Source: Nanobdellota archaeon
GTDB lineage: Archaea; Nanobdellota; Nanobdellia; Woesearchaeales; JAHIVG01
NCBI GenBank assembly: GCA_043812875.1
Contig: JBDRLS010000103.1
Coordinates: forward strand, 1-32,825
Direction: 5' to 3'
DNA: 32,825 nucleotides
Shown here: piece by piece, positions 4,140-32,227 of the stretch
How positions within the stretch are numbered: position 1 is the stretch's first letter
Layout of the letters: every line of letters starts with the position of its first letter
Notes under the pieces: model-generated
Database searches by the model: none
Told to the model about the DNA's origin: nothing
Seen by the model: the letters and a program-made list of their open reading frames with translations, nothing else
Program-made: the position numbers and the translations under genes

Positions 4140-4733
4140 ATGAAAGATGCCATCCGATCAATGCTGAAAGAAAGTGCACAGGTGAAGCTCAAGACTGCGG
4201 AAACGCTCACTTCTGAGATACAGACGGCTGCTGAAAAGATCATCGGCAGCTATAAGCAGGGCGGCAAGCTCATCATATTCGGAAACGGAGGAAGCGCGGC
4301 GGATGCCCAGCACATCACGACGGAGCTCATGCACCAATTTGAGAAGAACCGGAGATGTCTGCTTGCACTCGCGCTCAATACAAATACATCGATGATCACT
4401 GCCATCGGCAATGACTGGGGATTCGAAGACATATTCTCCAGGCAGGTAGAAGGACTCGCGACCCCAAAGGATGTCATCATCGCGATCAGCACCTCTGGCA
4501 ATTCCAAGAATGTCATCAAGGCAGTGAAGCTGGCAAAAGAGAAAGGAACATACACCATCTGCTTCACGAATCAGGAGGGCGGCATCCTGAAAGACATGGT
4601 CGACCTTTGCCTCTGTGTTCCGCATAAGAACACTGCCCGCGTGCAGGAATGTCATATCACCATAGGCCATATCCTCTGCAAGCTCATCGAAGAAAACCTC
4701 TTCCCCGACGCGGGAACGAGGAGGGGACCATGA
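4140..4733 (+). CDS. gmhA: D-sedoheptulose-7-phosphate isomerase
   Basis: GNGGSAADAQH, TAIGNDWG..IFSRQV, ISTSGNSKN and TARVQECHI; ATG 4140 chosen because of the SD. Confidence 0.95.
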   Translation: MKDAIRSMLKESAQVKLKTAETLTSEIQTAAEKIIGSYKQGGKLIIFGNGGSAADAQHITTELMHQFEKNRRCLLALALNTNTSMITAIGNDWGFEDIFSRQVEGLATPKDVIIAISTSGNSKNVIKAVKLAKEKGTYTICFTNQEGGILKDMVDLCLCVPHKNTARVQECHITIGHILCKLIEENLFPDAGTRRGP

Positions 4734-6163
4734 ACGCTTCGCTTGTCGGGCAGTTCCCGAAAAAGAGCATTCTTGCAATAGGCGACCTTGTCCTGGATAG
4801 CTATCTTGAGGGTGATGTCTCCCGTATTTCCCCTGAAGCGCCCGTTCCCGTGCTCCATGTCGAAAAGGAGCGATTTGTCCTCGGCGGAGCTGCGAATACC
4901 ATAGCAAATTGCGCCCATCTTGGCGCGCATGTCGAGGCGGTCGGAATCATCGGAAACGATGCCCCGGGAAAAAAGCTGCGCGCCCTGTTTTCTTCGATCG
5001 GCGTGGGTCATGGCGGGGTGGTTGTTGATGACAAGCGTCCGACGATAAGGAAGACCAGGCTGGTGACACAGCGGCAGCAGCTTGCCCGCATCGATTATGA
5101 GCATACGAGCGACATACCCTTGTCCCTCGAGAAGAAGATGCTTTCCCAGATCAGGAAAAGGATGACAAAGAGCGATGCGGTCATCATCTCAGATTATCAT
5201 AAGGGAACCATCACCGAGACGCTGGCGAAGGAGGTCATCAGTCTCGCAAGAAAGCAGGGCATCCCCCTCATTGTCGATACCAAACCTGACCACATGCTGT
5301 GGTTTGTGGATGCGACATTGATCACACCCAATAGGAAAGAGGCATCAACATTTGTTGGTTATGACCTTGATGATGAAGAGAGCGTGATCCGTGCAGGGAA
5401 GGAACTTGTTGAGAAAACGAAGAGCAATATCCTCATCACCCTCGGTGAACGGGGCATGGTGTTGATGGAAAAGGAAGGGAAGACAACTGCGGTGCCGACA
5501 CAGGCGAAGGAGGTGTTTGATGTCAGCGGCGCTGGCGATACGGTCGTAGCAGTCATGACACTGGGATTGGCTAGCAATGCATCCTTAAGCGAGGCAGCGA
5601 TCCTCGCGAACCATGCCGCAGGCATCGTCGTCGGAAAAGTCGGCACGGTCGCCATCACCAAAGACGAGCTTGCCCAGGTCATTGCAACAGGATCGACAAA
5701 GGTCAAGAGCCTTCCTGAGCTGAAGAAAACAACCGCTTTTCTGAAGAAGCAAGGGAAGCGGATCGTGTGGACAAATGGGTGCTTCGACATCCTGCACGTC
5801 GGGCATACCCGCTACCTGCAGGAGGCGCATAGGCTGGGTGATGTGCTCATCTTAGGATTGAATACTGATGCATCAGTCCATAGGTTTAAGGGGAAAGGAA
5901 GACCGATCCTCCCCGAGCGTGCGCGGGCAGAGGTGTTATCCGCGCTCAGCTCTGTTGATTATATCCTCTTCTTTGATGAAAGCACCCCGATAAGACAGAT
6001 CAAGGAACTCATGCCTGATATCATTGTCAAAGGAGGGGACTACAAAGCAGAAGATGTCGTCGGCTTTGATGTCATGAAAAAACAGGGAGGGAACGTGGTC
6101 ATCATTCCTCTTATCGAGGGATTTTCAACGACGACGCTGATCAACAAGATCCGAGACCAATGA
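4730..6163 (+). CDS. hldE: Bifunctional heptose-7-phosphate kinase / heptose-1-phosphate adenylyltransferase
   Basis: RISPEAPVPV, GGAAN, SDYHKG and DVSGAGDTV (PfkB kinase) followed by NGCFDILHVGH, KGGDY and GFSTT (nucleotidyltransferase); ATGA overlap at 4730. Confidence 0.95.
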   Translation: MNASLVGQFPKKSILAIGDLVLDSYLEGDVSRISPEAPVPVLHVEKERFVLGGAANTIANCAHLGAHVEAVGIIGNDAPGKKLRALFSSIGVGHGGVVVDDKRPTIRKTRLVTQRQQLARIDYEHTSDIPLSLEKKMLSQIRKRMTKSDAVIISDYHKGTITETLAKEVISLARKQGIPLIVDTKPDHMLWFVDATLITPNRKEASTFVGYDLDDEESVIRAGKELVEKTKSNILITLGERGMVLMEKEGKTTAVPTQAKEVFDVSGAGDTVVAVMTLGLASNASLSEAAILANHAAGIVVGKVGTVAITKDELAQVIATGSTKVKSLPELKKTTAFLKKQGKRIVWTNGCFDILHVGHTRYLQEAHRLGDVLILGLNTDASVHRFKGKGRPILPERARAEVLSALSSVDYILFFDESTPIRQIKELMPDIIVKGGDYKAEDVVGFDVMKKQGGNVVIIPLIEGFSTTTLINKIRDQ

Positions 6164-6726
6164 ACCGCGCGGTATTCCTGGACAGGGATGGGACGATCAA
6201 CCGAGATTCGCTCTATGCATATAAGATTGAGGATTTTGTCTTCTTGCCCGGGGTGAAAGAGGGCTTGAAAAAATTGCAGGCACTCTCTTTCAAGCTTATT
6301 GTGATAACCTCCCAATCAGGGATTGCACGAGGATTCTATACTGAAGAAGATCTTGAAAAAGTCCATGCATACATGCGCTCTGCATTAGAAAAAGAGGGGG
6401 TCCACCTTGATGCGGTCTATTATTGCCCCCATCACCCAGAAGCAGGGAATGAGAGATATAGGAAGGTCTGTGATTGCAGGAAGCCGAAGATAGGCTTGTT
6501 CCTCGAAGCAAAGAAGAGATTTGACATCGACCTTAAGAAAAGTTACATGATAGGCGACCGGAGCAAGGACATGGCTGCTGGAAAAACAGCCGGGTGCACG
6601 ACGATTTATCTGGATGTGCCTAAGCCTGATGATCATGAGCTGAAGGCTGCTCCTGATTACTCTGTGAAGAACTTCCCTGAAGCGGTCCAGGTGATCTTGG
6701 AGCGGGAGTCTTCTTCTGCCTTCTGA
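6160..6726 (+). CDS. gmhB: D-glycero-D-manno-heptose-1,7-bisphosphate phosphatase
   Basis: FLDRDGTIN, TSQSGIARG, YCPHHP..CDCRKP and MIGD..KD; ATGA overlap with hldE. Confidence 0.93.
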   Translation: MNRAVFLDRDGTINRDSLYAYKIEDFVFLPGVKEGLKKLQALSFKLIVITSQSGIARGFYTEEDLEKVHAYMRSALEKEGVHLDAVYYCPHHPEAGNERYRKVCDCRKPKIGLFLEAKKRFDIDLKKSYMIGDRSKDMAAGKTAGCTTIYLDVPKPDDHELKAAPDYSVKNFPEAVQVILERESSSAF

Positions 6727-14369: not shown

Positions 14370-17300
14370 TTAGGTATGTCCTATAGGAAAATCTGGGTTC
14401 TCCATACAAGATCCGTCTGGCATGCACATTGAAAAGGGAGGACAACCACAGACCTCACAATCCTGAATATATTCTCCGTCAAGACAAAAATCAGGCTTGT
14501 TCCCTGAACAGGAACCATGGAATGCCTCCGGACAATTGGATGAATAATAACCAGTGTGACCGGCATCATAAACATATTGGGACCACTCTACGTCATGAGG
14601 ATCATAATCATCAGCAATTATAAAGGCATAGGTAGCGTCTCTGGTCACGACAATCATTTCCAACGCCCCATTCCGATCAATATCGCCTATTGCTGGAGTG
14701 TAGACTCGGCTATCAAACTCAAAGTCATGAAGGAGGCTGCCTTCTGCCGAATAGACCTGGATCCCCTCATAAACGGCCGTAACAAGCTCAAGTCGACCAT
14801 CATTAGTGATGTCAACGAGGAGGCCGCTCGAAGTACTGTCAGTTAGAGGATTGTCAAATTCAATGGGCCAACCTGGTATAATTGAACCATCATTTTCCCA
14901 GGCAAACGTCTTTGTCCTGCTTCCTCCTATGATCTCAAGATCCCCGTCATCGTCGATATCACCAATCGAGGGAGAGGATAATACGGCTTCACCGACCAGT
15001 TTTGGCCAGCCCTCGAGAAGCGTCCCGTCAGAGCGGAATGCATAGAAGTTTTGGTCATAGCTCCCGATGAAAATCTCACGCAGACCATCATCATCTATGT
15101 CTGCGATAGCTGCTGGTGCGTGGGTACCACCGAATTCCTGAGGCCACCCATCCATCACTGAGCCATCATGATGGTATACGATGATTTCTCCTTGATCCTC
15201 GCTCGCAAAAACTATTTCAGAAAGACCGTCACCATCAATATCGCCAATTGATGGAAAGTAGTAACGATCAACAAAAAAATCAATCTCTTGCGGCCAACCG
15301 GATACTTCGCTACCATCAGCGTTGAATACGGTCACATACATCTGATCAGTAAGTTTATAGGCCAAAACAAGCTCATCATAACCATCATGGTCAACGTCAC
15401 CCAACGAGGGAGCTGAATGTACATACCCAATGAATAGAGGCCAACCCTCAACAATCGTGCCATTTGTGTAGTAAGCGTTTAATCCTCCAGCCCCATAACC
15501 CACCAATTCAGTGCGCTCATCCCCGATGATGTTGCCCGCATCCATAATAGATAGGTAATTTGTTTCAGGCCAACCGTCAAGCACTGATCCATTCAATTCG
15601 TAAATATAGCTAAATATATCTGGGGCAATGATCTCATCAACCCCATCGGCATCGACATCGACAAGAAGAGGAGGAAAACCTGCCCCCGCGACAGGCCAAC
15701 CTATCGATACAGAAGGATCGATGAAAATATTTGCCATGTCTATCACGCTGCCGAAGCGCTTATCAGCCGAGGAGTAAACAATAAGTCGGATCGTGTTGCT
15801 CGCACTCACTTCAAGCTCTGAGGGGTCTAGGGTACCAAGCACACCATCAATCACTGGTGCACTTGATGAAGCGAATATATGCCACTGGTCAGGGTAGGGA
15901 CCGAGGCCATACTCAAGTGTATATTGCAGAAAGGGATTGCTGAATGCTGATCCCCTTATCTCTATGGGTTCTGAGCCAAAATAAGATTGATCATCAAGGG
16001 AAGCATCAATTCTCGCGACAGGCACTAAATCATAGGACAATGCCTTAAAGGCATTGATCCTTCCCGTGCCAAAATAATAATCAGACGTCACAGGATCGAC
16101 CGCAGAATGCACCAAAGTCATAATCTGATCAACTGAAAACTCAGGATGCCTTGACTTGACCAGCCCGATGATTCCCGAAACGAGCGGAGTCGCGATGGAA
16201 GTCCCCGCCCCATCCTCATACACATCTCCCGGCTGCGTTGATCTAATCGAGACCCCTGGCGCAGCGACATCCACCCAAGAACCAAAATTAGACCCCCACA
16301 TCCCCCCATAACCATTCACCCGCGAATCATCAACCTCTGTGGCACCAACGGCGATGACTTCAGGATACGCAGCAGGATACCGTCTATAATTGAGGTTTTC
16401 ATTCCCCGCAGCCGAAACCTGGACCCTCCCCAGATTATAAGCATAAAGCACAGCCGCATGCATCACATCCGTTTCAGGTGTATTAACACTCATGCTCAAT
16501 ATGCCAGCGCCATTATCAACCGCATATTCGATTGCAGGAGCAATGACCCAGTGACCACCATAAGACTTGAGCCCCATAATCTGACAATGCATACAAGTAT
16601 TCACCACACCAATGCCATTATCACCAACAGCTGAAGCAGCACCCGCTGACCGAGTGCCATGCCCGACATGATCCGGAGCAATAACATCCACCTGATTGTT
16701 ATCATCAACAAAATTCCAGCCGACAAAGTCATCAGCAAAGCCGTTCCCATCGTCATCAACGCCATTGACGTCATCTTGGTCGAACTGCCATTCACCGACG
16801 ACAAATTCAAGGACAGCACCATCGCCATCCGCATCCTCTCCAAGATTCTGCCACATGTTCTCAACAAGATCCTCATGATGATAAGAGATATCTGTGTCAA
16901 TCACAGCAATGACAACATCAGGAGAACCCCGCTCAACATCCCATGCTAACGCTGACTGCAGATTATTATGATGCCACCGGGGATAGAAGATGTCATCAGG
17001 AGCAAAAGGAACATCGCCGATATAAGCAGGTTCAGCAGAAGCAATATCAGCATCACGGGCATACCCCTCAACAAGTCGCAAAATGTCCGCATCATCACCT
17101 ACCTTAACCTCATAAAAAAGATGCATCCCCAAGCGCCGCTTCTCAGCAACATCACCCTGATCCATGTTGAAGACAGGTCGAGCATCAAGAGGGCTATGGG
17201 CATCAAGAAGAGCATTGCCGGATGCGATAGCGGTCAGCTCATCGAGTGCATCATCGGCAGTATCGATGTCTGAACCTTCAGTAAATTTCACCACAAACAC

Positions 17301-17507
17301 ACCAGGGATAATTTGGTCAGCAGCATTGTACGTCGAGAGCTCCAGTTCACCGGGAGCATCACCCATGATCTCTGGGATCTTGATCCGTTCGCCGACGAGA
17401 TGCTCCTGAGAACTGAAAGAAAGATAGAATAATGAAGAAATGATCACCATAAAGAGCAGGACGATGACAAGACCATGATGCCGATTATTCCCTCCTTTTC
17501 TGGCCAT
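14370..17507 (-). CDS. Membrane-anchored or secreted S8 subtilase with FG-GAP/VCBS-like repeats and a Cys-rich tail
   Basis: N-terminal TM; triad motifs AVIDTD, HGTRSAG and GTSIATP; oxyanion AAGN; DDDGNGFADD loop; repeated GWP and GDxDxDG; ATG 17507 lies 22 nt from TATA 17530-17537. Confidence 0.9.
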   Translation of the reverse strand: MARKGGNNRHHGLVIVLLFMVIISSLFYLSFSSQEHLVGERIKIPEIMGDAPGELELSTYNAADQIIPGVFVVKFTEGSDIDTADDALDELTAIASGNALLDAHSPLDARPVFNMDQGDVAEKRRLGMHLFYEVKVGDDADILRLVEGYARDADIASAEPAYIGDVPFAPDDIFYPRWHHNNLQSALAWDVERGSPDVVIAVIDTDISYHHEDLVENMWQNLGEDADGDGAVLEFVVGEWQFDQDDVNGVDDDGNGFADDFVGWNFVDDNNQVDVIAPDHVGHGTRSAGAASAVGDNGIGVVNTCMHCQIMGLKSYGGHWVIAPAIEYAVDNGAGILSMSVNTPETDVMHAAVLYAYNLGRVQVSAAGNENLNYRRYPAAYPEVIAVGATEVDDSRVNGYGGMWGSNFGSWVDVAAPGVSIRSTQPGDVYEDGAGTSIATPLVSGIIGLVKSRHPEFSVDQIMTLVHSAVDPVTSDYYFGTGRINAFKALSYDLVPVARIDASLDDQSYFGSEPIEIRGSAFSNPFLQYTLEYGLGPYPDQWHIFASSSAPVIDGVLGTLDPSELEVSASNTIRLIVYSSADKRFGSVIDMANIFIDPSVSIGWPVAGAGFPPLLVDVDADGVDEIIAPDIFSYIYELNGSVLDGWPETNYLSIMDAGNIIGDERTELVGYGAGGLNAYYTNGTIVEGWPLFIGYVHSAPSLGDVDHDGYDELVLAYKLTDQMYVTVFNADGSEVSGWPQEIDFFVDRYYFPSIGDIDGDGLSEIVFASEDQGEIIVYHHDGSVMDGWPQEFGGTHAPAAIADIDDDGLREIFIGSYDQNFYAFRSDGTLLEGWPKLVGEAVLSSPSIGDIDDDGDLEIIGGSRTKTFAWENDGSIIPGWPIEFDNPLTDSTSSGLLVDITNDGRLELVTAVYEGIQVYSAEGSLLHDFEFDSRVYTPAIGDIDRNGALEMIVVTRDATYAFIIADDYDPHDVEWSQYVYDAGHTGYYSSNCPEAFHGSCSGNKPDFCLDGEYIQDCEVCGCPPFSMCMPDGSCMENPDFPIGHT
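14620..15710 (-). repeat. About seven protein-level FG-GAP-like repeats (probable beta-propeller); boundaries approximate
   Basis: Seven GWP motifs alternating with DVDADG, DVDHDG, DIDGDG, DIDDDG, DIDDDG, DITNDG and DIDRNG. Confidence 0.7.
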
Positions 17508-17632
17508 GGCGGTGATATGACCAATATTTAATATAAAGGTTGCGAAAAAAAGCAAAGGCACATTCCATTCATTCAAAAGGAACAGGTTATTAACAGGGAG
17601 ATTAAAATGGTTCGTGCTGCTCGGAAAATGAG

Positions 17633-18547
17633 CTATGCAAATAAATGCCGCCATTCTCTCACTGAGAGACGCTGTTTTCTCAGAAGTTTTCTGCGCTTTT
17701 CATAGATGACGAAGCGCTTTTTGTATGCAGCTTTCCATGCGTTTAGGATGACCCCTGCTTTCCCTTTGAGCAGGTATTTGAAGAAGATCGCTGCTTGGAG
17801 CGCGATGATAGGGATGCTGTATCTTATAAGGATGGCTGTTGGATAGTTCTTCCTGATGGTCCAGATACGGTTTCTCGTGCCGAGGAAGATGCTCTTGTCT
17901 GATCGCTTCATTGTGGCGCCGTGATCATGATGGACAATGGCCCTTGGCTGGGAGGCGCACTTCCACAGTCTTGAACGGGCTCGCAGACCGAGGTCGAGGT
18001 CTTCATAGTAGATGAAGAAGTCGCTGTCAAAATAGTCCCCGCCAAATTTGATCTCTTCGAGCACCTTCTTCCGGTAGAATGCAGCGCCGCCGCAGGGGCA
18101 TAGCGGCTTGTCCCGCGTCGTCTTGATGTCAGAAGAGAGCCCTGACGCCTTAAGCTTGATGCCATAGGTGTCGATGTCGCCATCGGGGAGAAGCATCTTC
18201 GGGGCGACCATGCCGACTCTTGTTTTCCCCTCGACTGACTGCATGAGATAGGTTAAGCATTCTGGATCGAGCATGGTGTCATTGTTGAGGATGAAGACGA
18301 AATCCCCTTTCGCTGCCTCGATGCCCTTGTTGTTCCCGGCGGCAAAGCCGAGGTTCTTCTGGAGCTGGATGATCCTGATGTTGGGAAAGGTGTTCTTGAC
18401 ATAATCCGAGGACCTGTCGACAGAGCCGTTGTCGACGAGGATGGTCTCGAAATTAGTATAGGTCTGGGCAAGGACTGAGGGGAGGCATCTCTCCAGAAGA
18501 TGCTTGCCGTTCCAATTCAAGACGATGACAGAGATTCGGGGACGCAT
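17633..18547 (-). CDS. Glycosyltransferase family 2 (WbbL/rhamnosyltransferase-like)
   Basis: IVLNWNG, VDNGSVD, NLGFAAGNN, LNNDT and FFIYYEDLDL; ATG 18547 lies 22 nt from TATA 18570-18577. Confidence 0.88.
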   Translation of the reverse strand: MRPRISVIVLNWNGKHLLERCLPSVLAQTYTNFETILVDNGSVDRSSDYVKNTFPNIRIIQLQKNLGFAAGNNKGIEAAKGDFVFILNNDTMLDPECLTYLMQSVEGKTRVGMVAPKMLLPDGDIDTYGIKLKASGLSSDIKTTRDKPLCPCGGAAFYRKKVLEEIKFGGDYFDSDFFIYYEDLDLGLRARSRLWKCASQPRAIVHHDHGATMKRSDKSIFLGTRNRIWTIRKNYPTAILIRYSIPIIALQAAIFFKYLLKGKAGVILNAWKAAYKKRFVIYEKRRKLLRKQRLSVREWRHLFA

Positions 18548-22777: not shown

Positions 22778-24583
22778 ATGCATGTCGTCCTTATCACGCC
22801 AAAAGGGAATATCAAGATAGCGCTTGATCAAGATGCACAAGGGAAATCAATCGGTGATTATGCGACCGCACAATTGAATGATGAATGCGTCGCTGCATTC
22901 AAGGAGCTCTCGCGTACCGCTGTTGAGGGAAAGCAGATACGGGAGAAATTCTGTATTGATGGCTTGTCCTTCTGGTGGATCATGGAGGACTGGCTCTGGG
23001 ATAGCTTTGCCTTTCGCCATCGATTCAAGGATGTCTTCCAAGCCATTGCGCTCTTCGACGAGATGATCAAATGTGAGAAGCCTTCAGCGATCACCTACTT
23101 CGGACAGGATAGCATGCATCATGCTGTTCTCAAAGAAGTGTGCAAATCAAATGGGATCACGTTCAAGGCCAAGCTCTCCATAAAAGAGGGGCCACGGCAA
23201 AGGATGTTGATGATCTCGGCGTTCTTTACATTGCGCTTCATTCTCAGAAAGAGCTACAGCTTCTTCCTTCCTGATAAACGCATCACCAAGGGAGGGGTCA
23301 TGGCATTTCCGCCCCATCATTGGAAAAAGGTCTTCGATCCAGGGAAGAAAGCGTTCATTACCGGAGACCCTTATACAACTCCGACCATGAACATCATCAG
23401 CAAGACCACTCCTGCGATATCTGTGGAGTTTCCGGCTGAGCATTCCAAGGAATTCGGATTTTGGCGGATGAAAACAAAATCCCGGCTTGATGGACATCTC
23501 CTCTTTGAACGCCATCTGAGATGGAATGACTTCCTTGAAGCGCACGCGAAGGCACGTTTACTGGAGAAAGAGGCACTCACTGTCTCAAAGGCGCAAAAAA
23601 ACGCGCGCTTCAAAGGAGTCCATTACTGGGCAATCTGTGTACCTCAGTTCATCTCCTACTTCCGCTACCGCCTCCCCAGCCATGTCCTGATGTTCCTCGG
23701 GATCCGCAGGCTTCTCAATGCATACAATCCTCGTGCGGTCTTCTTCTCAGCAGAAACAGGAGACCTTGGGAAAATCATCTTCTTCCTCTCTTCAAGGAAA
23801 GGAATCCCCAGCATCGCTATGCAGCACGGCATCATCACAGATTCCATGAGGGTCATGAGGGAGAAGAATGATGGATGCCCCCTTCCTGAGATGACTTGCC
23901 TGTACGGTGACCAGGATAAGGAATACCTTGTCAGATCATGCCATTATCCTCCTGGAAAAGTCAAGGTCATCGGCAATCAACGCAATGATGTCTTCGCTTT
24001 CAAGGAACTGTTCGACATCCCCAAGATAAAGGAAGAACTTGGTGTCAAAGGAAAGACGGTTGTTCTCGCCACACAAGAGATCCCTGATGAACAACTGCGT
24101 CGTGCGTATATCCTTGAAACGTGCAAGGCATTAGCACCGTTTCCGGTCGAGGTCATCATCAAGGTGCATCCTGCTGAAGATATAAGTTATTATCAAGAGC
24201 TGGTGTCGGCAAGCCCTTTGAAGAACGTCAAGATAATCAAAGAGTATGATATCACTCAGGCTATCGCAGCCTCAGATCTGGTCATCATCTACACATCGAC
24301 CGTGGGGATGGATGCCCTCATTCTCGACAAGGCATTGCTTGTGGTGAATCTTTCTGGAATGCCAGATCATGTCGGATATGCAAAAGAAGAGGCTGCTCTT
24401 GGTGCAAGGACTCCTGAAGAGATCAGTTTGCAGCTCAAGCGATGGATGAAGGGACTGCCTCCTGAGTTTGCAGAACAGAGAAAAGCCTTTGTTGCCAAGA
24501 GCTGCCATAAGATTGATGGGAAATCCACTGAAAGACTTGCTGAAACAATCCTTCACTATGTAAAACAGAAGAAAGTACGGTAA
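22778..24583 (+). CDS. Surface-carbohydrate biosynthesis protein, GT-B fold; candidate ulosonic-acid transferase
   Basis: MQHG, GNQRND, IKVHPAE, STVGMDA and DGKSTER, as in TagF/capsule-synthesis/sialyltransferase-like proteins; directly upstream of neuB. Confidence 0.6.
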   Translation: MHVVLITPKGNIKIALDQDAQGKSIGDYATAQLNDECVAAFKELSRTAVEGKQIREKFCIDGLSFWWIMEDWLWDSFAFRHRFKDVFQAIALFDEMIKCEKPSAITYFGQDSMHHAVLKEVCKSNGITFKAKLSIKEGPRQRMLMISAFFTLRFILRKSYSFFLPDKRITKGGVMAFPPHHWKKVFDPGKKAFITGDPYTTPTMNIISKTTPAISVEFPAEHSKEFGFWRMKTKSRLDGHLLFERHLRWNDFLEAHAKARLLEKEALTVSKAQKNARFKGVHYWAICVPQFISYFRYRLPSHVLMFLGIRRLLNAYNPRAVFFSAETGDLGKIIFFLSSRKGIPSIAMQHGIITDSMRVMREKNDGCPLPEMTCLYGDQDKEYLVRSCHYPPGKVKVIGNQRNDVFAFKELFDIPKIKEELGVKGKTVVLATQEIPDEQLRRAYILETCKALAPFPVEVIIKVHPAEDISYYQELVSASPLKNVKIIKEYDITQAIAASDLVIIYTSTVGMDALILDKALLVVNLSGMPDHVGYAKEEAALGARTPEEISLQLKRWMKGLPPEFAEQRKAFVAKSCHKIDGKSTERLAETILHYVKQKKVR

Positions 24584-24626
24584 TTCCAGTAAATTTGCCT
24601 AAAAATCATTAAAAAAAATAGATAAT

Positions 24627-24674
24627 CTTAAATATGGCATACAAATTGTACGGTACAATCGATCATGAGGTGAT
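24627..24674 (+). promoter_or_regulatory. Promoter of the neuB operon with overlapping palindromes (candidate operator) and SD
   Basis: TATA CTTAAATA 24627-24634; TACAA-A-TTGTA 24640-24650; ATTGTAC-G-GTACAAT 24645-24659; SD GAGGTGAT 24667-24674. Confidence 0.65.
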
Positions 24675-24678
24675 CACC

Positions 24679-25707
24679 ATGCCAAAAGAAGGATTTGACT
24701 CAATAACCATATCTGAAGAGCTCAGCACAAAGATCTCTCAATATCTCGGGGAAAACGAAGGCATAATACCCAATAAGTCACAGGCCATTGCGCATGCATG
24801 GCAGCTATTCGAGCACATCTCCCAGCAGGAGAAGAACCCGAAACCCGTCAGGATCGGAAACCGGCTTGTCGGACCGAATGAAGCGCCATTCCTTATCGCT
24901 GAAGTGGGGATCAACCACAATGGCGATGTTGAACTTGCGAAGAAGCTGATAGACCTCGCGGCAAAATATGGATGGGATGCAGTCAAGTTCCAGAAGCGGA
25001 CCATTGATAAGGTATACACCAAGGAAGAGCTTGCAAAGCCAAGGGAAAATCCTTTTGGCGCCACGAACGGCGACCTGAAGAGAGGACTTGAATTTGATGA
25101 GAAAGCATACAAAGAGATCGATATGTACTGCAAGGAGAAGGGTGTCATGTGGTTTGCCTCACCGTGGGACCTGGATAGTGTCGACTTCCTTGAAAAGTTC
25201 CAAGTGCCGTGCTATAAAGTGGGATCACCTAGCCTTACTGACATAAAGCTTCTCCTGAAGATCAAGGAGACGGGAAAGCCTGTCGTCCTCTCGACAGGCA
25301 TGAGCACCATGAAACAGATTCATGAAGCGGTCAGGATCCTCGGAGAGGAGAACGTCATCTTGATGCAATGCACTTCGACATATCCATGTGAACCGCACGA
25401 ACTTGACCTCCATGTGATTACCACATTCAGGAAGACCTTCAACTGCCCGATCGGCTACAGCGGACATGAAATAAACCCCTATCCGAGCATCGTCGCTGTA
25501 GGTCTTGGAGCATGCGCCATTGAGAGGCACATCACCCTTGACAGGTCCATGTTCGGCAGCGACCAGGCAGCGAGCCTTGAAGCGAGGGGCATGGAGCTCG
25601 TCGCCAAGTGCAGACAAGTGCCATCTTTCATGGGCAGCAAGAAGAAAAGGGTCTTCGACAGTGAGATCCCTATCATGAAAAAGCTCAGGAAGGTGACTGA
25701 CTTTTGA
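24679..25707 (+). CDS. neuB: NeuB-family ulosonic acid (9-phosphate) synthase with an N-terminal RHH-like extension and no C-terminal SAF domain
   Basis: IAEVGINHNGD, AVKFQKRT, LSTGMST, GYSGHE and IERHITLDR..GSD; N-terminus MPKEGFDSITISEEL..NKSQAI; start fixed by the SD. Confidence 0.9.
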   Translation: MPKEGFDSITISEELSTKISQYLGENEGIIPNKSQAIAHAWQLFEHISQQEKNPKPVRIGNRLVGPNEAPFLIAEVGINHNGDVELAKKLIDLAAKYGWDAVKFQKRTIDKVYTKEELAKPRENPFGATNGDLKRGLEFDEKAYKEIDMYCKEKGVMWFASPWDLDSVDFLEKFQVPCYKVGSPSLTDIKLLLKIKETGKPVVLSTGMSTMKQIHEAVRILGEENVILMQCTSTYPCEPHELDLHVITTFRKTFNCPIGYSGHEINPYPSIVAVGLGACAIERHITLDRSMFGSDQAASLEARGMELVAKCRQVPSFMGSKKKRVFDSEIPIMKKLRKVTDF

Positions 25708-26522
25708 TCCCGATCGGCATCATGCAAGGCAGGCTCTCCAAGCCGAAGGATAGGTTCCAGTGCTTTCCGTGGAACAGCTGGCGAGAGGAGTTCCCGCTGG
25801 CAGCTGAAGCAGGGTTCTCATGCATCGAATGGATCTATGAGCAGCCGCATGAGGAAGAGAACCCTCTGGGAACTGATGAGGGCTGTGAAGAGATAAGACA
25901 GCTATCCGTCCAGCATGGAGTGAAGATCCAATCGATCTGCGCAGACTATTACATGACCAATCTCCTCCTGGATAAGGAAGGTAAGGTCGATGAAGAGATG
26001 AAGAAGCACCTCATCTGGCTCATCGGCCGTGCAAGCAAGCTGAAGATGAAGTATATCATCCTTCCGTTCGTGGACCCCTCTTCGGTTGTCGGGCTCCCGC
26101 TGGAAGGCTTGATAGAACTCCTTTTCTCGCTCAAGGACATCCTTGAGCAGCATTCGCTTGAGATCCATCTCGAGACAGATCTTCCGCCGAAAGAGCTCGC
26201 AGCAGTCCTCCAGAAGGTTGATCATCCTCTCATCAAAGCAAACTTAGATACGGGCAACAGTGCATCTCTGGGTTTTGACGCTGAAGAAGAACTCAATGCC
26301 ATCGGACCTCACCTGGGGAGTGTGCATATCAAGGACAGGATCCTCAATGGAGGGACTGTCCCGCTCGGCAAGGGAGACACGGATTTCAAGACGTATTTCA
26401 GGCTGTTGAAGGATATCGGCTTCCCAGGACCGCTGATCCTCCAGACAGCCCGGGATGAGACATGCAGCGAGCTTGAACTCGCTCAGCAGAACATCGCCTT
26501 CGTCAGGAAGGGATGGGGGTAG
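25704..26522 (+). CDS. Sugar-phosphate isomerase/epimerase (xylose-isomerase-like TIM barrel)
   Basis: GIMQGRLS, LETD, DTGNSAS and VHIKDR..GGTVPLGKGD; TTG start overlaps the neuB stop. Confidence 0.8.
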   Translation: MIPIGIMQGRLSKPKDRFQCFPWNSWREEFPLAAEAGFSCIEWIYEQPHEEENPLGTDEGCEEIRQLSVQHGVKIQSICADYYMTNLLLDKEGKVDEEMKKHLIWLIGRASKLKMKYIILPFVDPSSVVGLPLEGLIELLFSLKDILEQHSLEIHLETDLPPKELAAVLQKVDHPLIKANLDTGNSASLGFDAEEELNAIGPHLGSVHIKDRILNGGTVPLGKGDTDFKTYFRLLKDIGFPGPLILQTARDETCSELELAQQNIAFVRKGWG

Positions 26523-26526
26523 ACCT

Positions 26527-27285
26527 ATGGATCTCAAGCTTAATGGAAAGGTGGCATTCATCGCAGGTGCGAGCCAGGGCATCGGCTTAGCCATCGCCGA
26601 AACACTGCAGAATGAAGGCGCCAGAGTCATCATCACAGGAAGAGATGAACAACGCCTCGCTGATGCAGAGAGACAACTAGGAAAGGACTGCGTCGCGATC
26701 CTTGGAGACCTTACTCAAGAAGATATCATTGCTCCGACGCTGGCAGAGGCTGTAAAGCGCTGCGGGCGTATCGACATCCTCATCGCCAATGTCGGAAGCG
26801 GCGTCATGCCTGTCAAGACAGCCTATACACCTGAAGAATGGCTTGAATGCTTCCAGAAGAACTTTCTTGGGAGCATGCTTCTCACCGGAGAATTCATCCC
26901 TTATCTTGAGAAGACCAAAGGATCGATCATCTTCATCGCGTCCATCGCAGGCATTGAAGGGATAAAAGCCCCAATGCCCTACGCAGCGGCAAAGGCCTCG
27001 CTCCTCAGCGCCATGAAGAGCCTCGCCCATCAGCTCGGGAAGAAAGGGATACGGGTCAATGCCATCTCACCTGGAAACATCCTCTTTCCCGGAGGCCGTT
27101 GGGAAGAAAAGTTAAAAAAGGACAAGACCGCGATTGAAGAATATATTGCATGCGAGGTTCCCCTCAACAGGTTCGGGACAGCGCAAGAGATTGCCGATGT
27201 TGCTGCATTCCTTGCGTCATCGAAGGCAGCATTCATCACCGGCGCAAATATCGTGGTCGACGGAGGACAGACACGCTCATGGTAA
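26527..27285 (+). CDS. Short-chain dehydrogenase/reductase (classical SDR)
   Basis: GASQGIG, YAAAK, RVNAISPGNI and ITGANIVVDGGQ; start moved from 26455 to ATG 26527. Confidence 0.9.
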   Translation: MDLKLNGKVAFIAGASQGIGLAIAETLQNEGARVIITGRDEQRLADAERQLGKDCVAILGDLTQEDIIAPTLAEAVKRCGRIDILIANVGSGVMPVKTAYTPEEWLECFQKNFLGSMLLTGEFIPYLEKTKGSIIFIASIAGIEGIKAPMPYAAAKASLLSAMKSLAHQLGKKGIRVNAISPGNILFPGGRWEEKLKKDKTAIEEYIACEVPLNRFGTAQEIADVAAFLASSKAAFITGANIVVDGGQTRSW

Positions 27286-28112
27286 ACACATCAGTGGCTG
27301 GACGATTTAGGTTAGATGGGAAGGTCATCATCATCACAGGAGGAGCCGGGCTTCTCGGCAGGAAGCATGCTGAAGCAGTCGCAGAGATGGGTGCTATCCC
27401 GGTCATCTGGGATGTTGATGAAAAAGCAGCAAAGGACGCTGCTGATGGAATAAGGCATGCCTTCAAAGGAAAAGCGCTAGGCATGGGCTGCGACATCACC
27501 GACGAGAGATCAATCCTGAAGGCGTTTGCGCGTGTTCTTAAAACGTTCAAGAAGGTTGAAGTCCTCATCAACAATGCTGCTAATAACTATAAAGTAGAGG
27601 GGGGGAAGAAGCAATTCTCTAGACTTGAAAACTTTCCTCGGGAAGCATGGGATCAGGACATTGCCGTCGGGCTGACGGGAGCATTTCTTTGCAGCAGGGT
27701 CATCGGAGCGCATATGGCACAGCACGGTGGAGGAGTCATCCTCAACATTGCCTCTGATCTCGGGATCATCGCCCCTGATCAAAGAATTTACCGCGAAGAA
27801 GGAAAAGCTGAGGAAGAACAGCCGGTGAAGCCGGTAACCTATTCTGCGGTCAAGGCAGGGCTTCTCGGCCTTTCTAAGTATCTTGCTACATACTGGGCGG
27901 ATAAAGGCGTTCGCGTGAATGCAGTCTCATTCGGCGGAGTGTCCAATAATCAGGATGAAGCATTCGTAAAAAAACTCACTAATCTCATCCCATTGGGCAG
28001 GATGGCGGACAAGGATGAGTATAAGGCAGTGGTGGTGTTCTTGGTGTCCGATGCGTCGTCGTATATGACTGGATCCAATCTGGTCATCGACGGAGGGAGA
28101 ACCACATGGTAA
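27279..28112 (+). CDS. Short-chain dehydrogenase/reductase (PtmA-like, nonulosonate-cluster type)
   Basis: TGGAGLLG, INNAA, APDQRIY, YSAVK and YMTGSNLVIDGG; start moved to ATG 27279. Confidence 0.88.
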   Translation: MVNTSVAGRFRLDGKVIIITGGAGLLGRKHAEAVAEMGAIPVIWDVDEKAAKDAADGIRHAFKGKALGMGCDITDERSILKAFARVLKTFKKVEVLINNAANNYKVEGGKKQFSRLENFPREAWDQDIAVGLTGAFLCSRVIGAHMAQHGGGVILNIASDLGIIAPDQRIYREEGKAEEEQPVKPVTYSAVKAGLLGLSKYLATYWADKGVRVNAVSFGGVSNNQDEAFVKKLTNLIPLGRMADKDEYKAVVVFLVSDASSYMTGSNLVIDGGRTTW

Positions 28113-28582
28113 ATCCTGACTTTTGTAAGATAAAGCTGTTGGTCTGTGATTTTGACGGAGTCATGACTGATAACAAAGTGATCTTCAGAGAAGACGGCAT
28201 GGAATCAGTGGTCTGCAACAGAGGAGATGGGCTCGGTATAGAGATGCTCGAGAAAAAAGGGATTCCCACCTTGATCATCTCGAAGGAGCGCAACAAAGTG
28301 GTGATGGCGCGCGCAAAGAAGATCAGAGCTGAAGTCTTACAAGGAGTCGATGATAAGATATCCTTGTTCAAGGAAGAGATAAAGCGTAGAGGCCTCGACA
28401 AAAAAGAGGTCTGCTTCATCGGCAACGACATCACAGATATCGACTGCATGAAAGAAGCAGGCATCGGTGTTGCGGTTGCGGATTCATATCATGCAGCCCT
28501 CAGGGCAGCGGATCATGTCACCAACAGAAAGGGCGGCGAAGGAGCTGTGCGGGAAGTCTGCGATCTTATTCTTGGAAATTGA
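28106..28582 (+). CDS. KdsC/YrbI-family HAD phosphatase (ulosonate-phosphate phosphatase)
   Basis: DFDGVMTD, DGLGI, GNDITD and GGEGAVREVCD. Confidence 0.88.
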   Translation: MVNPDFCKIKLLVCDFDGVMTDNKVIFREDGMESVVCNRGDGLGIEMLEKKGIPTLIISKERNKVVMARAKKIRAEVLQGVDDKISLFKEEIKRRGLDKKEVCFIGNDITDIDCMKEAGIGVAVADSYHAALRAADHVTNRKGGEGAVREVCDLILGN

Positions 28583-29267
28583 CCATGCCTTCCTTGAGGA
28601 CACATTCTGCAAGCATCCAGTCCAGGGGATCATTGATGTCCAAGTCATGAGGCCGCTCCAAGAGGAGACCGACATTGTCTTCTGCCTGCATCTTCCCGGT
28701 CTTCAGCAGGACCTCTGGCTTGAATATGTATGCAGCTGAGTTCTCGACATAGCGCGGGGCAAGCTTGTCCATTGCGATAGGAAGGCTTTGCGGGTCATAG
28801 GAGAAATGGTCATCGAAAAGGGTTCCTGTCCTCAGCTTCCGCTTGCTGATCGTCTGGCCGCTCCCTGCCTTGCGCCTCTTCACGAGCGCAACCAATGCGT
28901 CGATATGTAAGGCAGCACGGAACGGGGTGGTCGGTGGAAGCAGGATGACAAAGTCTGGGTTGATGCCTTGTTTCTTCAGCACCTTTATTGCATCGATCAA
29001 GACATCTTCTGTCGTAGTATTATCCTTTGCGAGGGAAAGCGGCCTGTCCAGGATGGTCAAAGGCTTCGATGCGTGCCGGGAGAAGGCCTCCACCTGTTCC
29101 TTGATGGCCCTGTCTTCGGTGGAGACAAAGAGCTGGTCAACGGAATGACTCGAGTCTGCTGCCTTGAGGGTGTAATGGATCAGGGGGATGCCCTGCAGGG
29201 GCTTGATATTCTTCCCAGGAATCCTCTTGCTCCCTCCACGGGCAGGGATGATGGCGATGATTTCCAT
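28566..29267 (-). CDS. neuA: Acylneuraminate cytidylyltransferase (CMP-ulosonate synthetase)
   Basis: IIPARGGSKRIPGKN, VSTED, PTTPFR, YVENSA and DINDPLD; ATG 29267 lies 22 nt from TATA 29290-29297. Confidence 0.9.
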   Translation of the reverse strand: MEIIAIIPARGGSKRIPGKNIKPLQGIPLIHYTLKAADSSHSVDQLFVSTEDRAIKEQVEAFSRHASKPLTILDRPLSLAKDNTTTEDVLIDAIKVLKKQGINPDFVILLPPTTPFRAALHIDALVALVKRRKAGSGQTISKRKLRTGTLFDDHFSYDPQSLPIAMDKLAPRYVENSAAYIFKPEVLLKTGKMQAEDNVGLLLERPHDLDINDPLDWMLAECVLKEGMVNFQE

Positions 29268-29322
29268 GGTGAGAAGGAACAATACTGGATTTATAAATGT
29301 TGGGGAATACACGACTTCGACT

Positions 29323-30801
29323 TCATGAAGCATGAATACGCATAAGACTTTTCAAGAACCCTTTGAGCATCTCCAGCTCGTTCTTGTCAAATACCTTGAG
29401 GAAGAAGAGGAGAAGGATATAGATGATGCCGGCGACAATGAGCGCCCCGATCTTCAATGACGCAGATGAGGTATTGATGAAGAGGAAGAGAATGCTGATG
29501 ATGACTGATGCGGCAAGGATGCGCTCGAGCTTCAAGAAACGCCAATGCCAAGCAAAGAATCCCCGGCAGAAATACCATGCCGCGCCATAGATGGCGAGAT
29601 AGCTCAGCAAGGTTGAAATTGCCGCACCGACCATGGCAAATGGTGGGATGAGGATGAGGTTCAAGATGATATTGAGGATGGCTCCCCCGGCAAAAATCAG
29701 GCCCATGAGCTTGGTCCTATTGCGCAATAAGAGCTGCTGGCGGAAGAGATAGATGAGGACAAAGATGACCGGAAACCACACGAGATAGGGGAGGACCGCC
29801 GCAGCAGGGGCATACCGCACTCCAGAGATCATGGTGATGATCTGTTCCCCGAAGGAAAGGAGGATGAAGGTGCCGGGCAAGACGATCACCATGGCGTACT
29901 TGAGGGCGCTGTTGAAAAGGAAATTGGCGTCCTTCTTCTGGTTCCAACGCTCAGCGATATGAGGGTAGAGCACATTGGTCACCGCGTTTCCGACGGTGTT
30001 CACTATCATCACCAATGCGTATGCGAGCGCGAAGAGCGCGACGGTCTCGGCGCCGTGCCATGCGTTGAGGAAGAACCGGTTGACGAGGATGACGCTCCAT
30101 TCGCCGACGATGGCGGGAAGGAGGGGCAGGGAAAAGAGATAGCCGTTCTTCGCATCATTGAAGCTGAGGGAGGAGAACCTGAATTCGTTCCTCATCCTGA
30201 GATAAACAACGCCGAGGACAGCTGCTGTGAGGAAGCCGAAAAGCCAGATGACCATGAGTGAGATGACAGTCAGAGAATTGAAGAGGATGTAGATGAAAGT
30301 CAGCATGACCGCGAGAACCATGTTCGGAAGGATATCAGTTAGGGCCTTGAACTCGAGACGCTTGTTCGCAATGAGGAAGGAGTTGCATACCCGGAAGATG
30401 ATGCTGCCTGCAGCGACGAACAAAGCAAAGGAAAACTCGGTCTCATAACCTTGTATCTTGATCACACTGATGAGGAAATTGAACAGTGATGGAGTGAAGG
30501 AAAAGACGAGGAGCACGAGGACGAATATGAGATGGAGATAGAGGATGGATGCCTGGATGCGCCACTTCGTCTTCTGTTTCATGCCCGGCAGCTTGGTGAT
30601 GAGGTATTGGGAGATCCCGAGATCGAAGATGACACCGGATAGTGTGACGACGCTCGCCAACAGGGTGTAGACGCCATACTCTGTCAGTGAGAGGGTGCGG
30701 GTCATGAGGAAGATCAAGAAAGGGCCGAGGATGAGAGAGATGCCAAGCGAGAGATAAGATAATCCCAGCTGTCTGGGCAAAGTGAGATGGTCTGCGGGCA
30801 T
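29323..30801 (-). CDS. Wzx/MurJ-superfamily oligosaccharide flippase
   Basis: About 14 TM; TRTL...EYG.Y, DLGI and NIILNLILIP.F.MVGAAISTL; TATA 30824-30831. Confidence 0.88.
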   Translation of the reverse strand: MPADHLTLPRQLGLSYLSLGISLILGPFLIFLMTRTLSLTEYGVYTLLASVVTLSGVIFDLGISQYLITKLPGMKQKTKWRIQASILYLHLIFVLVLLVFSFTPSLFNFLISVIKIQGYETEFSFALFVAAGSIIFRVCNSFLIANKRLEFKALTDILPNMVLAVMLTFIYILFNSLTVISLMVIWLFGFLTAAVLGVVYLRMRNEFRFSSLSFNDAKNGYLFSLPLLPAIVGEWSVILVNRFFLNAWHGAETVALFALAYALVMIVNTVGNAVTNVLYPHIAERWNQKKDANFLFNSALKYAMVIVLPGTFILLSFGEQIITMISGVRYAPAAAVLPYLVWFPVIFVLIYLFRQQLLLRNRTKLMGLIFAGGAILNIILNLILIPPFAMVGAAISTLLSYLAIYGAAWYFCRGFFAWHWRFLKLERILAASVIISILFLFINTSSASLKIGALIVAGIIYILLLFFLKVFDKNELEMLKGFLKSLMRIHAS

Positions 30802-31295: not shown

Positions 31296-32227
31296 AAAGA
31301 GGCGTCACTGAAACTGTGCCCATGCTGGTCATACTGCTTGTTGTTGTAGCCTTGCTCATGCTTTTTACCGGGGAATTGACAAAATTGCTGTCAAAGGCAG
31401 GCATTGGCCAGGAGCGGAGCATCGCGCCGTTCGTCAGTGCCTATCTCCGCGATCCTATTACTCAGATCGAGGTGTTGAAGTTAGAGTTCCCGATCCGCGA
31501 TGTCCTCATTGACAAGGATGCGATGAAGAACATAAGGGAACGCCAGCTCATTGAAGCGGTGAAGCTCGACTATTTCCCTCTCACTGTCCACGAAAGCGAC
31601 GAATACATAAGCATTAAGAAGACGATCGCCAAACTCCAGGATGAAAAGGATCAGAAGCAGATTGTCGAGTGGAAAGCGAACCAGATGATCGCGGATGAGC
31701 TTGAAGACTGCTGGCATGACATGGGAGAAGGGAAACTGCTGCTGTTCAGCAAATGGTGGGAACGGGTCGGCGGCGGTTTGAAGGAAAGCGAGTTGGATGA
31801 CGAATGGGAACAGTACCTCAATGAGAATCATCTGCCGCAAATGCCTCCTATCTTCTGTGTCATCTGCGCGCGCATCGAGTTTGACAAGGAGTTGCAGGGG
31901 ATCCTCGATCCGGTGGTTTCTAAAAGGTTCATGGATTATTTAAGGAGGTATCCGACTAGGGGAGATGATGAGATGAGCATCCTGAATTACCTTCGGGACC
32001 CCCTTGTGTCAAATCTGTATACAAAAGAATATTCCTACAGCACCACAGAGCCGTATGCGATCGTGTTCGCCAGGGTCAACACCCACAGATTGTATGATTA
32101 TGCGGAATTCATAGGGAACAGGCTTCAGATAACCAGAAAGGAGGGGAATGATGAAGATTTCAGCACATTGGTCATGGCATCCATGGAAGACCTTGACCTC
32201 TATTGCACGACACTTGCGAACTCGTAA
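31292..32227 (+). CDS. Class III signal peptide membrane-anchored protein, function unknown
   Basis: MKRG|VTE followed by a hydrophobic helix; CW..MGEG and CVIC motifs. Confidence 0.75.
   Translation: MKRGVTETVPMLVILLVVVALLMLFTGELTKLLSKAGIGQERSIAPFVSAYLRDPITQIEVLKLEFPIRDVLIDKDAMKNIRERQLIEAVKLDYFPLTVHESDEYISIKKTIAKLQDEKDQKQIVEWKANQMIADELEDCWHDMGEGKLLLFSKWWERVGGGLKESELDDEWEQYLNENHLPQMPPIFCVICARIEFDKELQGILDPVVSKRFMDYLRRYPTRGDDEMSILNYLRDPLVSNLYTKEYSYSTTEPYAIVFARVNTHRLYDYAEFIGNRLQITRKEGNDEDFSTLVMASMEDLDLYCTTLANS

Follow-up and report, generated by a model that had tools for sequence, protein, structure and literature searches.

A predicted ribbon-helix-helix domain fused to a NeuB-family synthase, and a candidate two-site operator at its own promoter, in a Nanobdellota archaeon

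The locus and the start of the fused gene

The window analyzed here, i.e., the whole stretch of 32,825 nucleotides taken from contig JBDRLS010000103.1 of a Nanobdellota archaeon (assembly GCA_043812875.1), contains the gene of a short NeuB-family synthase that is preceded, in the same chain, by a domain predicted to adopt the ribbon-helix-helix (RHH) fold. Two copies of a predicted operator lie on either side of a TATA-like octamer in front of this gene, which is the first of five overlapping or abutting genes on the same strand (Table 1). This arrangement suggests an enzyme that may repress its own operon. The genome in question has 1.50 Mb and is 93% complete, and the closest proteins with a named source come from metagenome bins of Pacearchaeota, Woesearchaeota and Nanoarchaeota. 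Open reading frames (ORFs) in the window were taken from a program-made list, whose longest-ORF coordinates are given for genes 3 and 4. A look-up of sequencing runs listed none for 24300-26300, RNA data included.

Table 1. Features of the fused gene, its promoter and its neighbors, by position in the window
Feature	Position	Strand	Remarks
Upstream gene, 601-aa surface-carbohydrate biosynthesis or transferase-like protein	22778-24583	+	last codons contain the distal site
Distal predicted operator GTACGGTAA	24575-24583		7/8 specified bases of GTACNGTAC; overlaps stop codon of upstream gene
TATA-like octamer CTTAAATA	24627-24634	+	1 mismatch to TTTAWATA
Proximal predicted operator, 15-bp palindrome ATTGTACGGTACAAT with 7-nt arms	24645-24659		core GTACGGTAC at 24648-24656
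Shine-Dalgarno sequence GAGGTGAT	24667-24674	+	4 nt 5' of ATG 24679; read from the sequence
Predicted RHH domain plus short NeuB-family synthase, whole gene	24679-25707	+	342 aa; without SAF domain
Predicted RHH-fold domain plus linker, residues 1-57	24679-24849	+	from AF2 models, fold matches and hhalign
Gene 2, xylose-isomerase-like TIM barrel (sugar-phosphate epimerase-like)	25704-26522	+	overlaps NeuB stop codon
Gene 3, short-chain dehydrogenase	26455-27285	+	longest-ORF coordinates; true start probably further downstream
Gene 4, second short-chain dehydrogenase	27150-28112	+	longest-ORF coordinates; true start probably further downstream
Gene 5, KdsC/YrbI-family sugar-acid phosphate phosphatase	28106-28582	+	TIGR01670, 112.2 bits against a cut-off of 106.95
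Cytidylyltransferase (CTP_transf_3), convergent	28566-29333	-	family found directly 3' of the fused gene in several related loci

The longest ORF of the fused gene spans positions 24634-25707 and has an in-frame ATG at 24679. We place the start of translation at 24679, because a Shine-Dalgarno sequence lies just upstream, because the homologues start correspondingly, and because position 24634 falls at the end of the TATA-like octamer. At least 46 of the 50 homologues with the N-terminal domain have its beginning among their first 12 residues, and GGTGAT precedes the ATG in most related loci. A start at ATG 24634, which coincides with the octamer and is absent from the homologues, was rejected, and the public gene call P0001 (357 aa, from that ATG) is probably 15 codons too long. 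A perfect 10-bp palindrome, GGTGATCACC, also covers the Shine-Dalgarno sequence (24669-24678); the other loci share only its GGTGAT, and the palindrome is probably a chance occurrence.

The N-terminal domain

Relative to solved NeuB chains, the barrel of the fused protein begins at about residue 53-56, which leaves approximately 52-55 extra residues at the N-terminus. Residue 3 of the Neisseria meningitidis NeuB aligns with residue 53 of the fused protein, and position 2 of the TIGR03569 model with residue 71. In AlphaFold2 (AF2) models, residues 1-12 are extended and are followed by a helix (residues 13-25), a short loop and a second helix (residues 33-49/52). The same topology is obtained for the whole protein as a monomer and for residues 1-57 alone, with predicted local distance difference test (pLDDT) values of 93 and 86, respectively.

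A Foldseek search with the modeled domain returned RHH-type chains at ranks 1-9, namely ParD2, HicB3, the omega repressor, ParD1, PrpA and NikR, with template-modeling (TM) scores of 0.51-0.65. A wide structure search with VIA, which is independent of Foldseek and in which Z values below 8 can reflect a common arrangement, gave ParD2 (Z 6.3), NikR (1q5v, Z 5.6), PrpA (Z 5.5), TacA (Z 5.4) and MazE (Z 5.3), as well as the RHH-operator complex of PutA (2rbf, Z 5.1, root-mean-square deviation 2.0 over 44 of 44 residues). CopA, TraM, omega, ORF56, AmrZ, SvtR and Arc (the last with Z 4.0) appear lower in the same list, and most of its first 40 rows are RHH proteins, as judged from the entry titles. 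Since the scores are modest for so small a domain, the assignment to the RHH fold rests on this near-pure list of RHH matches and not on individual values. As modeled, the extension is a domain of the RHH fold.

The domain profile also weakly matches stand-alone ORFs of 46-65 residues in four other genomes of the phylum. These four stand-alone archaeal proteins score 16-19.5 bits with the RHH_1 model, under its cut-off of 20.5, and hhalign aligns the domain with them at 95.9% probability over 40 columns, which links it indirectly to RHH proteins by sequence. A feature-based search of the ESM Atlas led to clusters of DUF5371, RHH_1, RHH_3 and RHH_6 at 0.77-0.80, i.e., under the 0.9 line and of value as a lead only. 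Within the domain, Lys3, Gly5 and Thr10 are nearly invariant, while Tyr/Phe6 and Ser8 are mostly conserved. The only match of the extension in a scan of Pfam and NCBIfam, a sub-threshold one to Phage_ABA_S (E 0.007), was taken as chance.

The catalytic domain

The NeuB family model, PF03102, matches residues 90-323 with its full length (model positions 1-241 of 241; E 4e-74; 249.6 bits against a cut-off of 22.1). Nine residues, namely Glu75, Asn79, His80, Lys103, Gln105, His263, Glu282, His284 and Asp295, are invariant in 42 aligned sequences; His263 and His284 align with the two N. meningitidis NeuB histidines of the SGH and ERH motifs. These positions presumably have the metal-binding and catalytic roles of the NeuB residues with which they align. 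With the active-site positions invariant, the enzyme part looks functional.

Among solved structures, the catalytic barrel is matched best by a short NeuB from Leptospira (6ncs; Foldseek E 1.5e-27, phmmer E 2e-35), and next in order are N. meningitidis NeuB (1xuu) and Campylobacter jejuni PseI (8h2c). The fused protein resembles 6ncs (285-290 residues) in being a short synthase of the family without SAF domain, whereas canonical NeuB carries this domain at its C-terminus. No SAF match was found in the fused protein in a Pfam scan, and its alignment to NeuB chains of 349-351 aa stops at chain residue 284-286. Unlike the fused protein, none of the solved chains has an N-terminal extension.

Two equivalog models score far under their cut-offs, i.e., that of N-acetylneuraminate synthase, TIGR03569 (250.6 bits against 399.65), and that of pseudaminate synthase, TIGR03586 (199.1 bits against 340.25). 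Judged from these comparisons, the protein is a NeuB-family enzyme and not a proven N-acetylneuraminic acid (Neu5Ac) synthase, and annotation as such is inappropriate. Because the TIGR03569 score is below the cut-off, the substrate is probably not N-acetylmannosamine; the neighboring phosphatase and the absence of a SAF domain suggest a sugar phosphate.

Conservation and distribution of the fusion

The domain is present in 50 of the 120 best homologues, and these 50 are mostly 341-351 residues long; the other 70 lack it and are mostly 288-299 residues long. Among proteins of 117-2000 aa, the domain profile (A2) gave 38 matches, all of them with PF03102, and among proteins of 30-116 aa it gave a single match, a 48-aa fragment. 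In a maximum-likelihood tree of 119 catalytic cores, from which P0020 was left out for lack of the anchor motif, presence of the domain needs only 2 changes (bootstrap range 2-2); the mean after shuffling the labels is 38.3, and 0 of 500 shuffles were as low as 2. The tree is unrooted, so that gain and loss of the domain are indistinguishable in it. At the sequence level, the fusion is thus genuine, conserved and specific to NeuB.

Its distribution is sporadic. A NeuB-like match is present in 43 of 201 genomes of the order, and in only 3 of them does the match extend from residue 1; 4 of 401 sampled genomes of the phylum have a strong match to the domain. Among the best 80 loci of a species-level genome collection, loci that are mostly bacterial, only one (L015) has the domain; an apparent match from residue 6 in a Terriglobia locus (L072) was discarded, as its translation shows no such domain. 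When 1.84 billion representatives were searched by phmmer with the first 70 residues, 5 matches were obtained. Two of these, the giant A/P/E-rich proteins P0121 and P0122, are missed by the domain profile and were rejected as spurious, and the other three are a fragment, a truncated gene call and a chimera. The chimera, P0123 (235 aa), joins the N-terminal domain and the first NeuB strand to a nucleotidyltransferase-like back half (Pfam E 0.0047), and probably arose by deletion or in assembly.

Two further variants were observed. P0031 (535 aa) has, in one frame, a SIS_2 domain, a degraded copy of the N-terminal domain (residues 193-248) and NeuB; this is a second type of architecture, with the RHH-like part in an internal position and of decayed appearance. 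In locus L115 (1569-2594), the fused gene breaks off after codon 142 and resumes in another ORF, at 2004-2594, and its two predicted operator sites remain; the interruption may be a frameshift, a pseudogene or a sequencing error.

These results bear on the original prediction, made for the window from its sequence, of an RHH-like domain fused to NeuB. It had described about 50 extra residues of strand-helix-helix pattern, translated from position 24679, in front of a NeuB with intact catalytic motifs and no C-terminal SAF domain. The AF2 topology and RHH fold matches, the Shine-Dalgarno sequence and homologue starts, the nine invariant residues, and the Pfam scan and shortened alignment agree with it on each point, as does the domain-architecture search, in which 38 of 38 longer matches carry PF03102. 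The position at which its feature began, 24575, proved to be that of the distal DNA site and not of the gene.

The predicted operator

In the window, GTACGGTA occurs at both 24575-24582 and 24648-24655, i.e., twice against 0.09 expected, and 0 of 100 shuffles contain two or more copies. In dinucleotide shuffles of the 95-bp spacer, palindromes with a gap of 1 and arms of at least 6 nt appear in 186 of 5000 cases, and two such palindromes with arms of at least 5 nt in 49 of 5000. Taken alone, therefore, the window is only mildly unusual, and the weight of the evidence comes from the comparison with other loci.

This comparison comprised 13 non-redundant loci with a fused gene, namely the window, one each from genomes G096 (L083) and G072 (L084), L015, and nine metagenome loci (L112-L120). 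Two duplicates of L015 (L121 and L122) and one locus that is not a relative (L123) were left out. The locus searches used a full-length alignment and a 5-row alignment. In the 250 bp 5' of the ATG, each of the 13 loci carries two sites that differ from GTACNGTAC at no more than one position, except that L015 carries three; in total, 20 sites are exact and 7 have one mismatch. In an unbiased enumeration of all words of the form 4-N(0-7)-4, GTACnGTAC was the only one found in all 13 upstream regions; the next unrelated words, present in 8-9 of 13, are those of the TATA box. A TATA-like octamer (TTTAWATA, with at most one mismatch) lies between two sites in all 13 loci and is exact in 10. The conserved unit is, by this comparison, the 9-bp palindrome GTACNGTAC, with one whole palindrome per site.

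The spacing of these elements is also constrained. From the start of the TATA-like octamer to the proximal site there are 21-23 bp in ten loci, 10-11 bp in two and 31 bp in one; in the window, the proximal core begins 21 bp after the start of the octamer. From the distal site to the start of the octamer there are 40-41 bp in nine loci, 31-33 bp in three, and 52 bp in the window, whose distal site has a counterpart in all 12 other loci. The two sites are spaced by 51, 51, 53, 54, 62, 62, 62, 62, 63, 63, 64, 64 and 73 bp, i.e., by about 5, 6 or 7 helical turns, and all three distances shift in steps of approximately one turn. A Rayleigh test at a period of 10.5 bp gives p of about 1e-4 when all 13 values are used and of 0.008 when each of the 7 distinct values is counted once, figures that are generous, as the loci are related. 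The distance from the proximal site to the ATG ranges from 21 to 103 bp; because of this variation, we take the sites to be positioned relative to the promoter and not to the ribosome-binding site. A role of the motif at the RNA level was rejected, since one of the copies, the distal one, is located 5' of the TATA box and since the distance that is kept is that to the TATA box, not to the ATG. L015, like its duplicates L121 and L122, has a pair of distal sites offset by 11 bp (at -94 and -83; L015:3907-3926), which together with the proximal site make three operators in helical register.

A different operator had been proposed for the window, consisting of three TACAA half-sites in two overlapping palindromes. 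Two of the features noted there, the palindrome at 24645-24659 and the recurring sequence at 24575, belong to the two-site element found in 13 of 13 loci. The model of three half-sites was abandoned, since the TACAA at 24640-24644 has no counterpart in the other 12 loci; this first TACAA, and the palindrome to which it belongs (TACAAATTGTA at 24640-24650), are probably due to chance. A 9-bp palindrome is the size read by one RHH dimer, as in the metbox of MetJ, and the predicted element thus fits one dimer at each of two phased sites and not three half-sites.

The motif is rare elsewhere. Exact GTACNGTAC sites number 0 in 27 archaeal loci of the same order in which NeuB lacks the domain (one of them, L111, is from the unpublished genome G183), and 635 kb of other short-form loci contain one. 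The window's own 1.50-Mb genome has 2 exact sites, the other being inside a coding frame like that of argininosuccinate lyase; the only further near-site in the window, at 31808, is also within an ORF. As both lie inside ORFs, a wider regulon was rejected. G096 has 3 copies, 2 of them at the promoter of the fused gene, against 30 of the reversed control word, and G072 has 3, 1 of them at this promoter, against 18. The tetramer GTAC is itself scarce, with only 1494 occurrences in the 1.50 Mb of the window's genome; it may be avoided in these genomes, perhaps owing to restriction.

A natural loss case fits the association between domain and motif. In the orthologous fused gene of L127 (unpublished genome G355; reverse strand, about 1258-2508), the strand and the first helix of the N-terminal domain are decayed, but helix 2 and the barrel are still present; the 300 bp upstream contain no site that comes within one mismatch of GTACNGTAC. 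Publication of the L127/G355 data requires the permission of the depositors.

Proposed mechanism and alternatives

We propose that the fused protein is an autorepressing enzyme-regulator, of the kind known from PutA and RbkR and built on a new enzyme. We put the probability of this reading at roughly 70%. The analysis shows the fusion, the fold of the domain as modeled, the conserved architecture of the predicted operator and the strict association of the latter with the domain. An intact catalytic domain and a domain of DNA-binding type are found in one chain, as expected of a trigger enzyme, and comparative genomics places the predicted operator at the promoter of the enzyme's own pathway. 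From this we infer that the fused protein itself would be what binds the two sites, and that binding there would repress. By analogy, and with less weight, the predicted binding may be tuned by what the catalytic domain has bound, be it substrate, product or CMP-sugar (CMP, cytidine monophosphate).

In this proposal, two chains would pair their N-terminal strands into a DNA-reading ribbon that reads GTACNGTAC, and the conserved Lys3, Gly5, Thr10, Tyr/Phe6 and Ser8 would fit its invariant GTAC core. Each of the two sites would take up one dimer, with both dimers on one side of the helix and the TATA box between them, and one oligomer or two cooperating dimers would occupy both sites together. 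Joint occupancy is probable, because the sites are a whole number of helical turns apart. Judging from the usual archaeal distance between TATA box and start point, transcription would begin at about 24657, with the proximal site over it. Recruitment of TBP/TFB or of polymerase would thereby be blocked, and the five-gene operon, which would make a CMP-activated ulosonic (sialic-acid-like) sugar, would be repressed. In a more specific form of the proposal, an oligomer, e.g., a tetramer with an RHH dimer at each end, would clamp the TATA box and be tightened or released by the ligand of the barrel; this form is tentative, and we would sooner bet against it than for it.

Several observations weigh against an autorepressing RHH enzyme. 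At the protein level, no Foldseek match of the domain reaches E 0.001 (ranks 1-9 have E values of at least 0.6), and the fold scores are modest, with VIA Z values of at most 6.3. The RHH models of Pfam recognize neither the domain nor its 19 aligned relatives; HicB_lk_antitox is matched by 2 of the 19, weakly (E 0.061), and a profile of the extension finds nothing below E 0.35 among the sequences of the PDB. The hhalign link to the four stand-alone proteins is partly circular, as these were chosen with the same profile. At the DNA level, the distal site of the window has one mismatch and overlaps a stop codon, and the 3 sites of the window within one mismatch of GTACNGTAC are no more than chance would give, as 28 of 100 shuffles have at least as many. 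The sites of L084 are 103 and 167 bp before the ATG. Finally, the 13 loci are related, and the statistics overstate their independence.

The fused protein might instead bind the same sites as an activator, as a dual regulator, or as a ligand-blind autoregulator that buffers its own level. A distal site 31-52 bp upstream of the TATA box would suit an activator, as archaeal activators can act from such a position. In each of the loci, however, the proximal site follows the TATA start by 10-31 bp, which puts it on the predicted start point or directly beside it, where archaeal repressors usually bind. We consider these modes of action unlikely.

Somewhat less probable still is that the N-terminal domain is a structural or allosteric add-on, e.g., a replacement for SAF in oligomerization or a lid, and that a separate regulator binds GTACNGTAC. 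DAH7PS of Thermotoga maritima and a chorismate-mutase-fused DAH7PS, enzymes of the same barrel superfamily that both have N-terminal add-ons, are among the fold matches, and the add-on domains of DAH7PS have a regulatory role. The linker and the N-terminal domain are modeled with high confidence in the full-length monomer, and no RHH match is seen at the level of sequence. The small domain itself, however, matches DNA-binding RHH proteins and not ACT or chorismate mutase domains. A separate regulator would also leave unexplained why the motif is in 13 of 13 fused loci and in none of the 27 short-form loci in exact form, and why the locus with the decayed domain lacks it. No conserved regulator gene is nearby: no Pfam regulator family was found among 49 flanking ORFs of the 12 other loci.

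That there is no function at all, the fusion being an artefact of gene calling or assembly and the motif shared by common descent, is close to excluded: most records are metagenome assemblies and the database call P0001 starts 15 codons too early, but one open frame with a conserved linker recurs in 50 proteins from many samples, the proteins are only 45-66% identical to that of the window, at most 9 of the 13 upstream regions have any 4-N-4 word in common apart from those of the motif and the TATA box, and the site positions move by whole helical turns.

Neighboring genes

The window as a whole is a surface-glycan island, with glycosyltransferases of families GT2, GT4 and GT9, an HldE-like kinase/nucleotidyltransferase, a GDP-mannose dehydratase, epimerases and a flippase. 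At 4649-6723, an HldE-like fusion of a PfkB kinase and a cytidylyltransferase-like domain precedes a HAD phosphatase, with two GT9 heptosyltransferase-like genes near; this set constitutes a heptose-type pathway, which is unusual for an archaeon. The island also includes, on the minus strand at 14370-17654, a gene for a protein of 1093 aa that combines a subtilase S8 domain with FG-GAP repeats.

Across loci, the genes around the fused gene vary, except for a frequent cytidylyltransferase directly downstream. In G096, an ORF of the ParE toxin family adjoins a DUF7557 ORF about 0.8 kb downstream of the fused gene (L083:3288-3787, minus strand); the two are likely a toxin-antitoxin pair, which is not conserved in the other loci.

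Relation to known systems and significance

Enzyme-regulator fusions are, to our knowledge, rare. PutA of enteric bacteria likewise carries an N-terminal RHH domain on a working metabolic enzyme (proline dehydrogenase/Δ1-pyrroline-5-carboxylate dehydrogenase), and it acts as a repressor of its own operon by way of a single control region that contains several copies of the operator. It is a flavoenzyme, and its switch is membrane association upon flavin reduction. The two systems differ in that PutA is bacterial and catabolic, whereas the protein described here would act at an archaeal TATA-type promoter and has a biosynthetic, phosphoenolpyruvate-condensing TIM barrel; the predicted operator here consists of two phased copies of GTACNGTAC on either side of the TATA box. 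Sequence similarity between the fused protein and PutA was not detected. NikR shares the RHH fold. In NikR, two RHH dimers on a core that does not bind DNA read a two-part operator, and this geometry of two dimers on one core is the one proposed here for the two phased sites; its core, however, is a nickel-binding regulatory domain and not an enzyme, and its half-sites are much closer together.

The nearest archaeal parallel discussed here is RbkR, a riboflavin kinase fused to a winged-helix DNA-binding domain. Its operators, including one at its own gene, were found by comparative genomics and then validated, and its DNA binding is tuned by the substrate and the product of the enzyme (PMC5397151). 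The two cases are alike in joining an archaeal enzyme to a domain of DNA-binding type, with an operator at its own gene identified, or here predicted, by comparative genomics; they differ in that the domain predicted here is of the RHH type, that the enzyme is a NeuB synthase, and that the fusion is restricted to few genomes (of 401 sampled in the phylum, 4 have it). In full-text searches, no paper was found on an RHH-NeuB fusion or on the regulation of nonulosonic acids in these archaea.

Each fusion of an enzyme with a regulator shows how metabolism can signal to transcription without a separate sensor. If the proposal is correct, it would add a NeuB-type synthase, a pathway for surface-glycan precursors and a new group of hosts to the set formed by PutA, BirA and RbkR. 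If, in addition, an oligomer clamps the TATA box as described above, this would be the first known case of an enzyme-repressor that links transcription directly to the flux through a cell-surface sugar-acid pathway, and the first trigger enzyme of the RHH type in archaea, in small-genome organisms of the DPANN type that have few regulators. The predicted operator is one of very few candidate cis-regulatory elements for uncultivated archaea with small genomes, and the comparison of loci has already defined its sequence, its geometry relative to the promoter and a natural case of loss.

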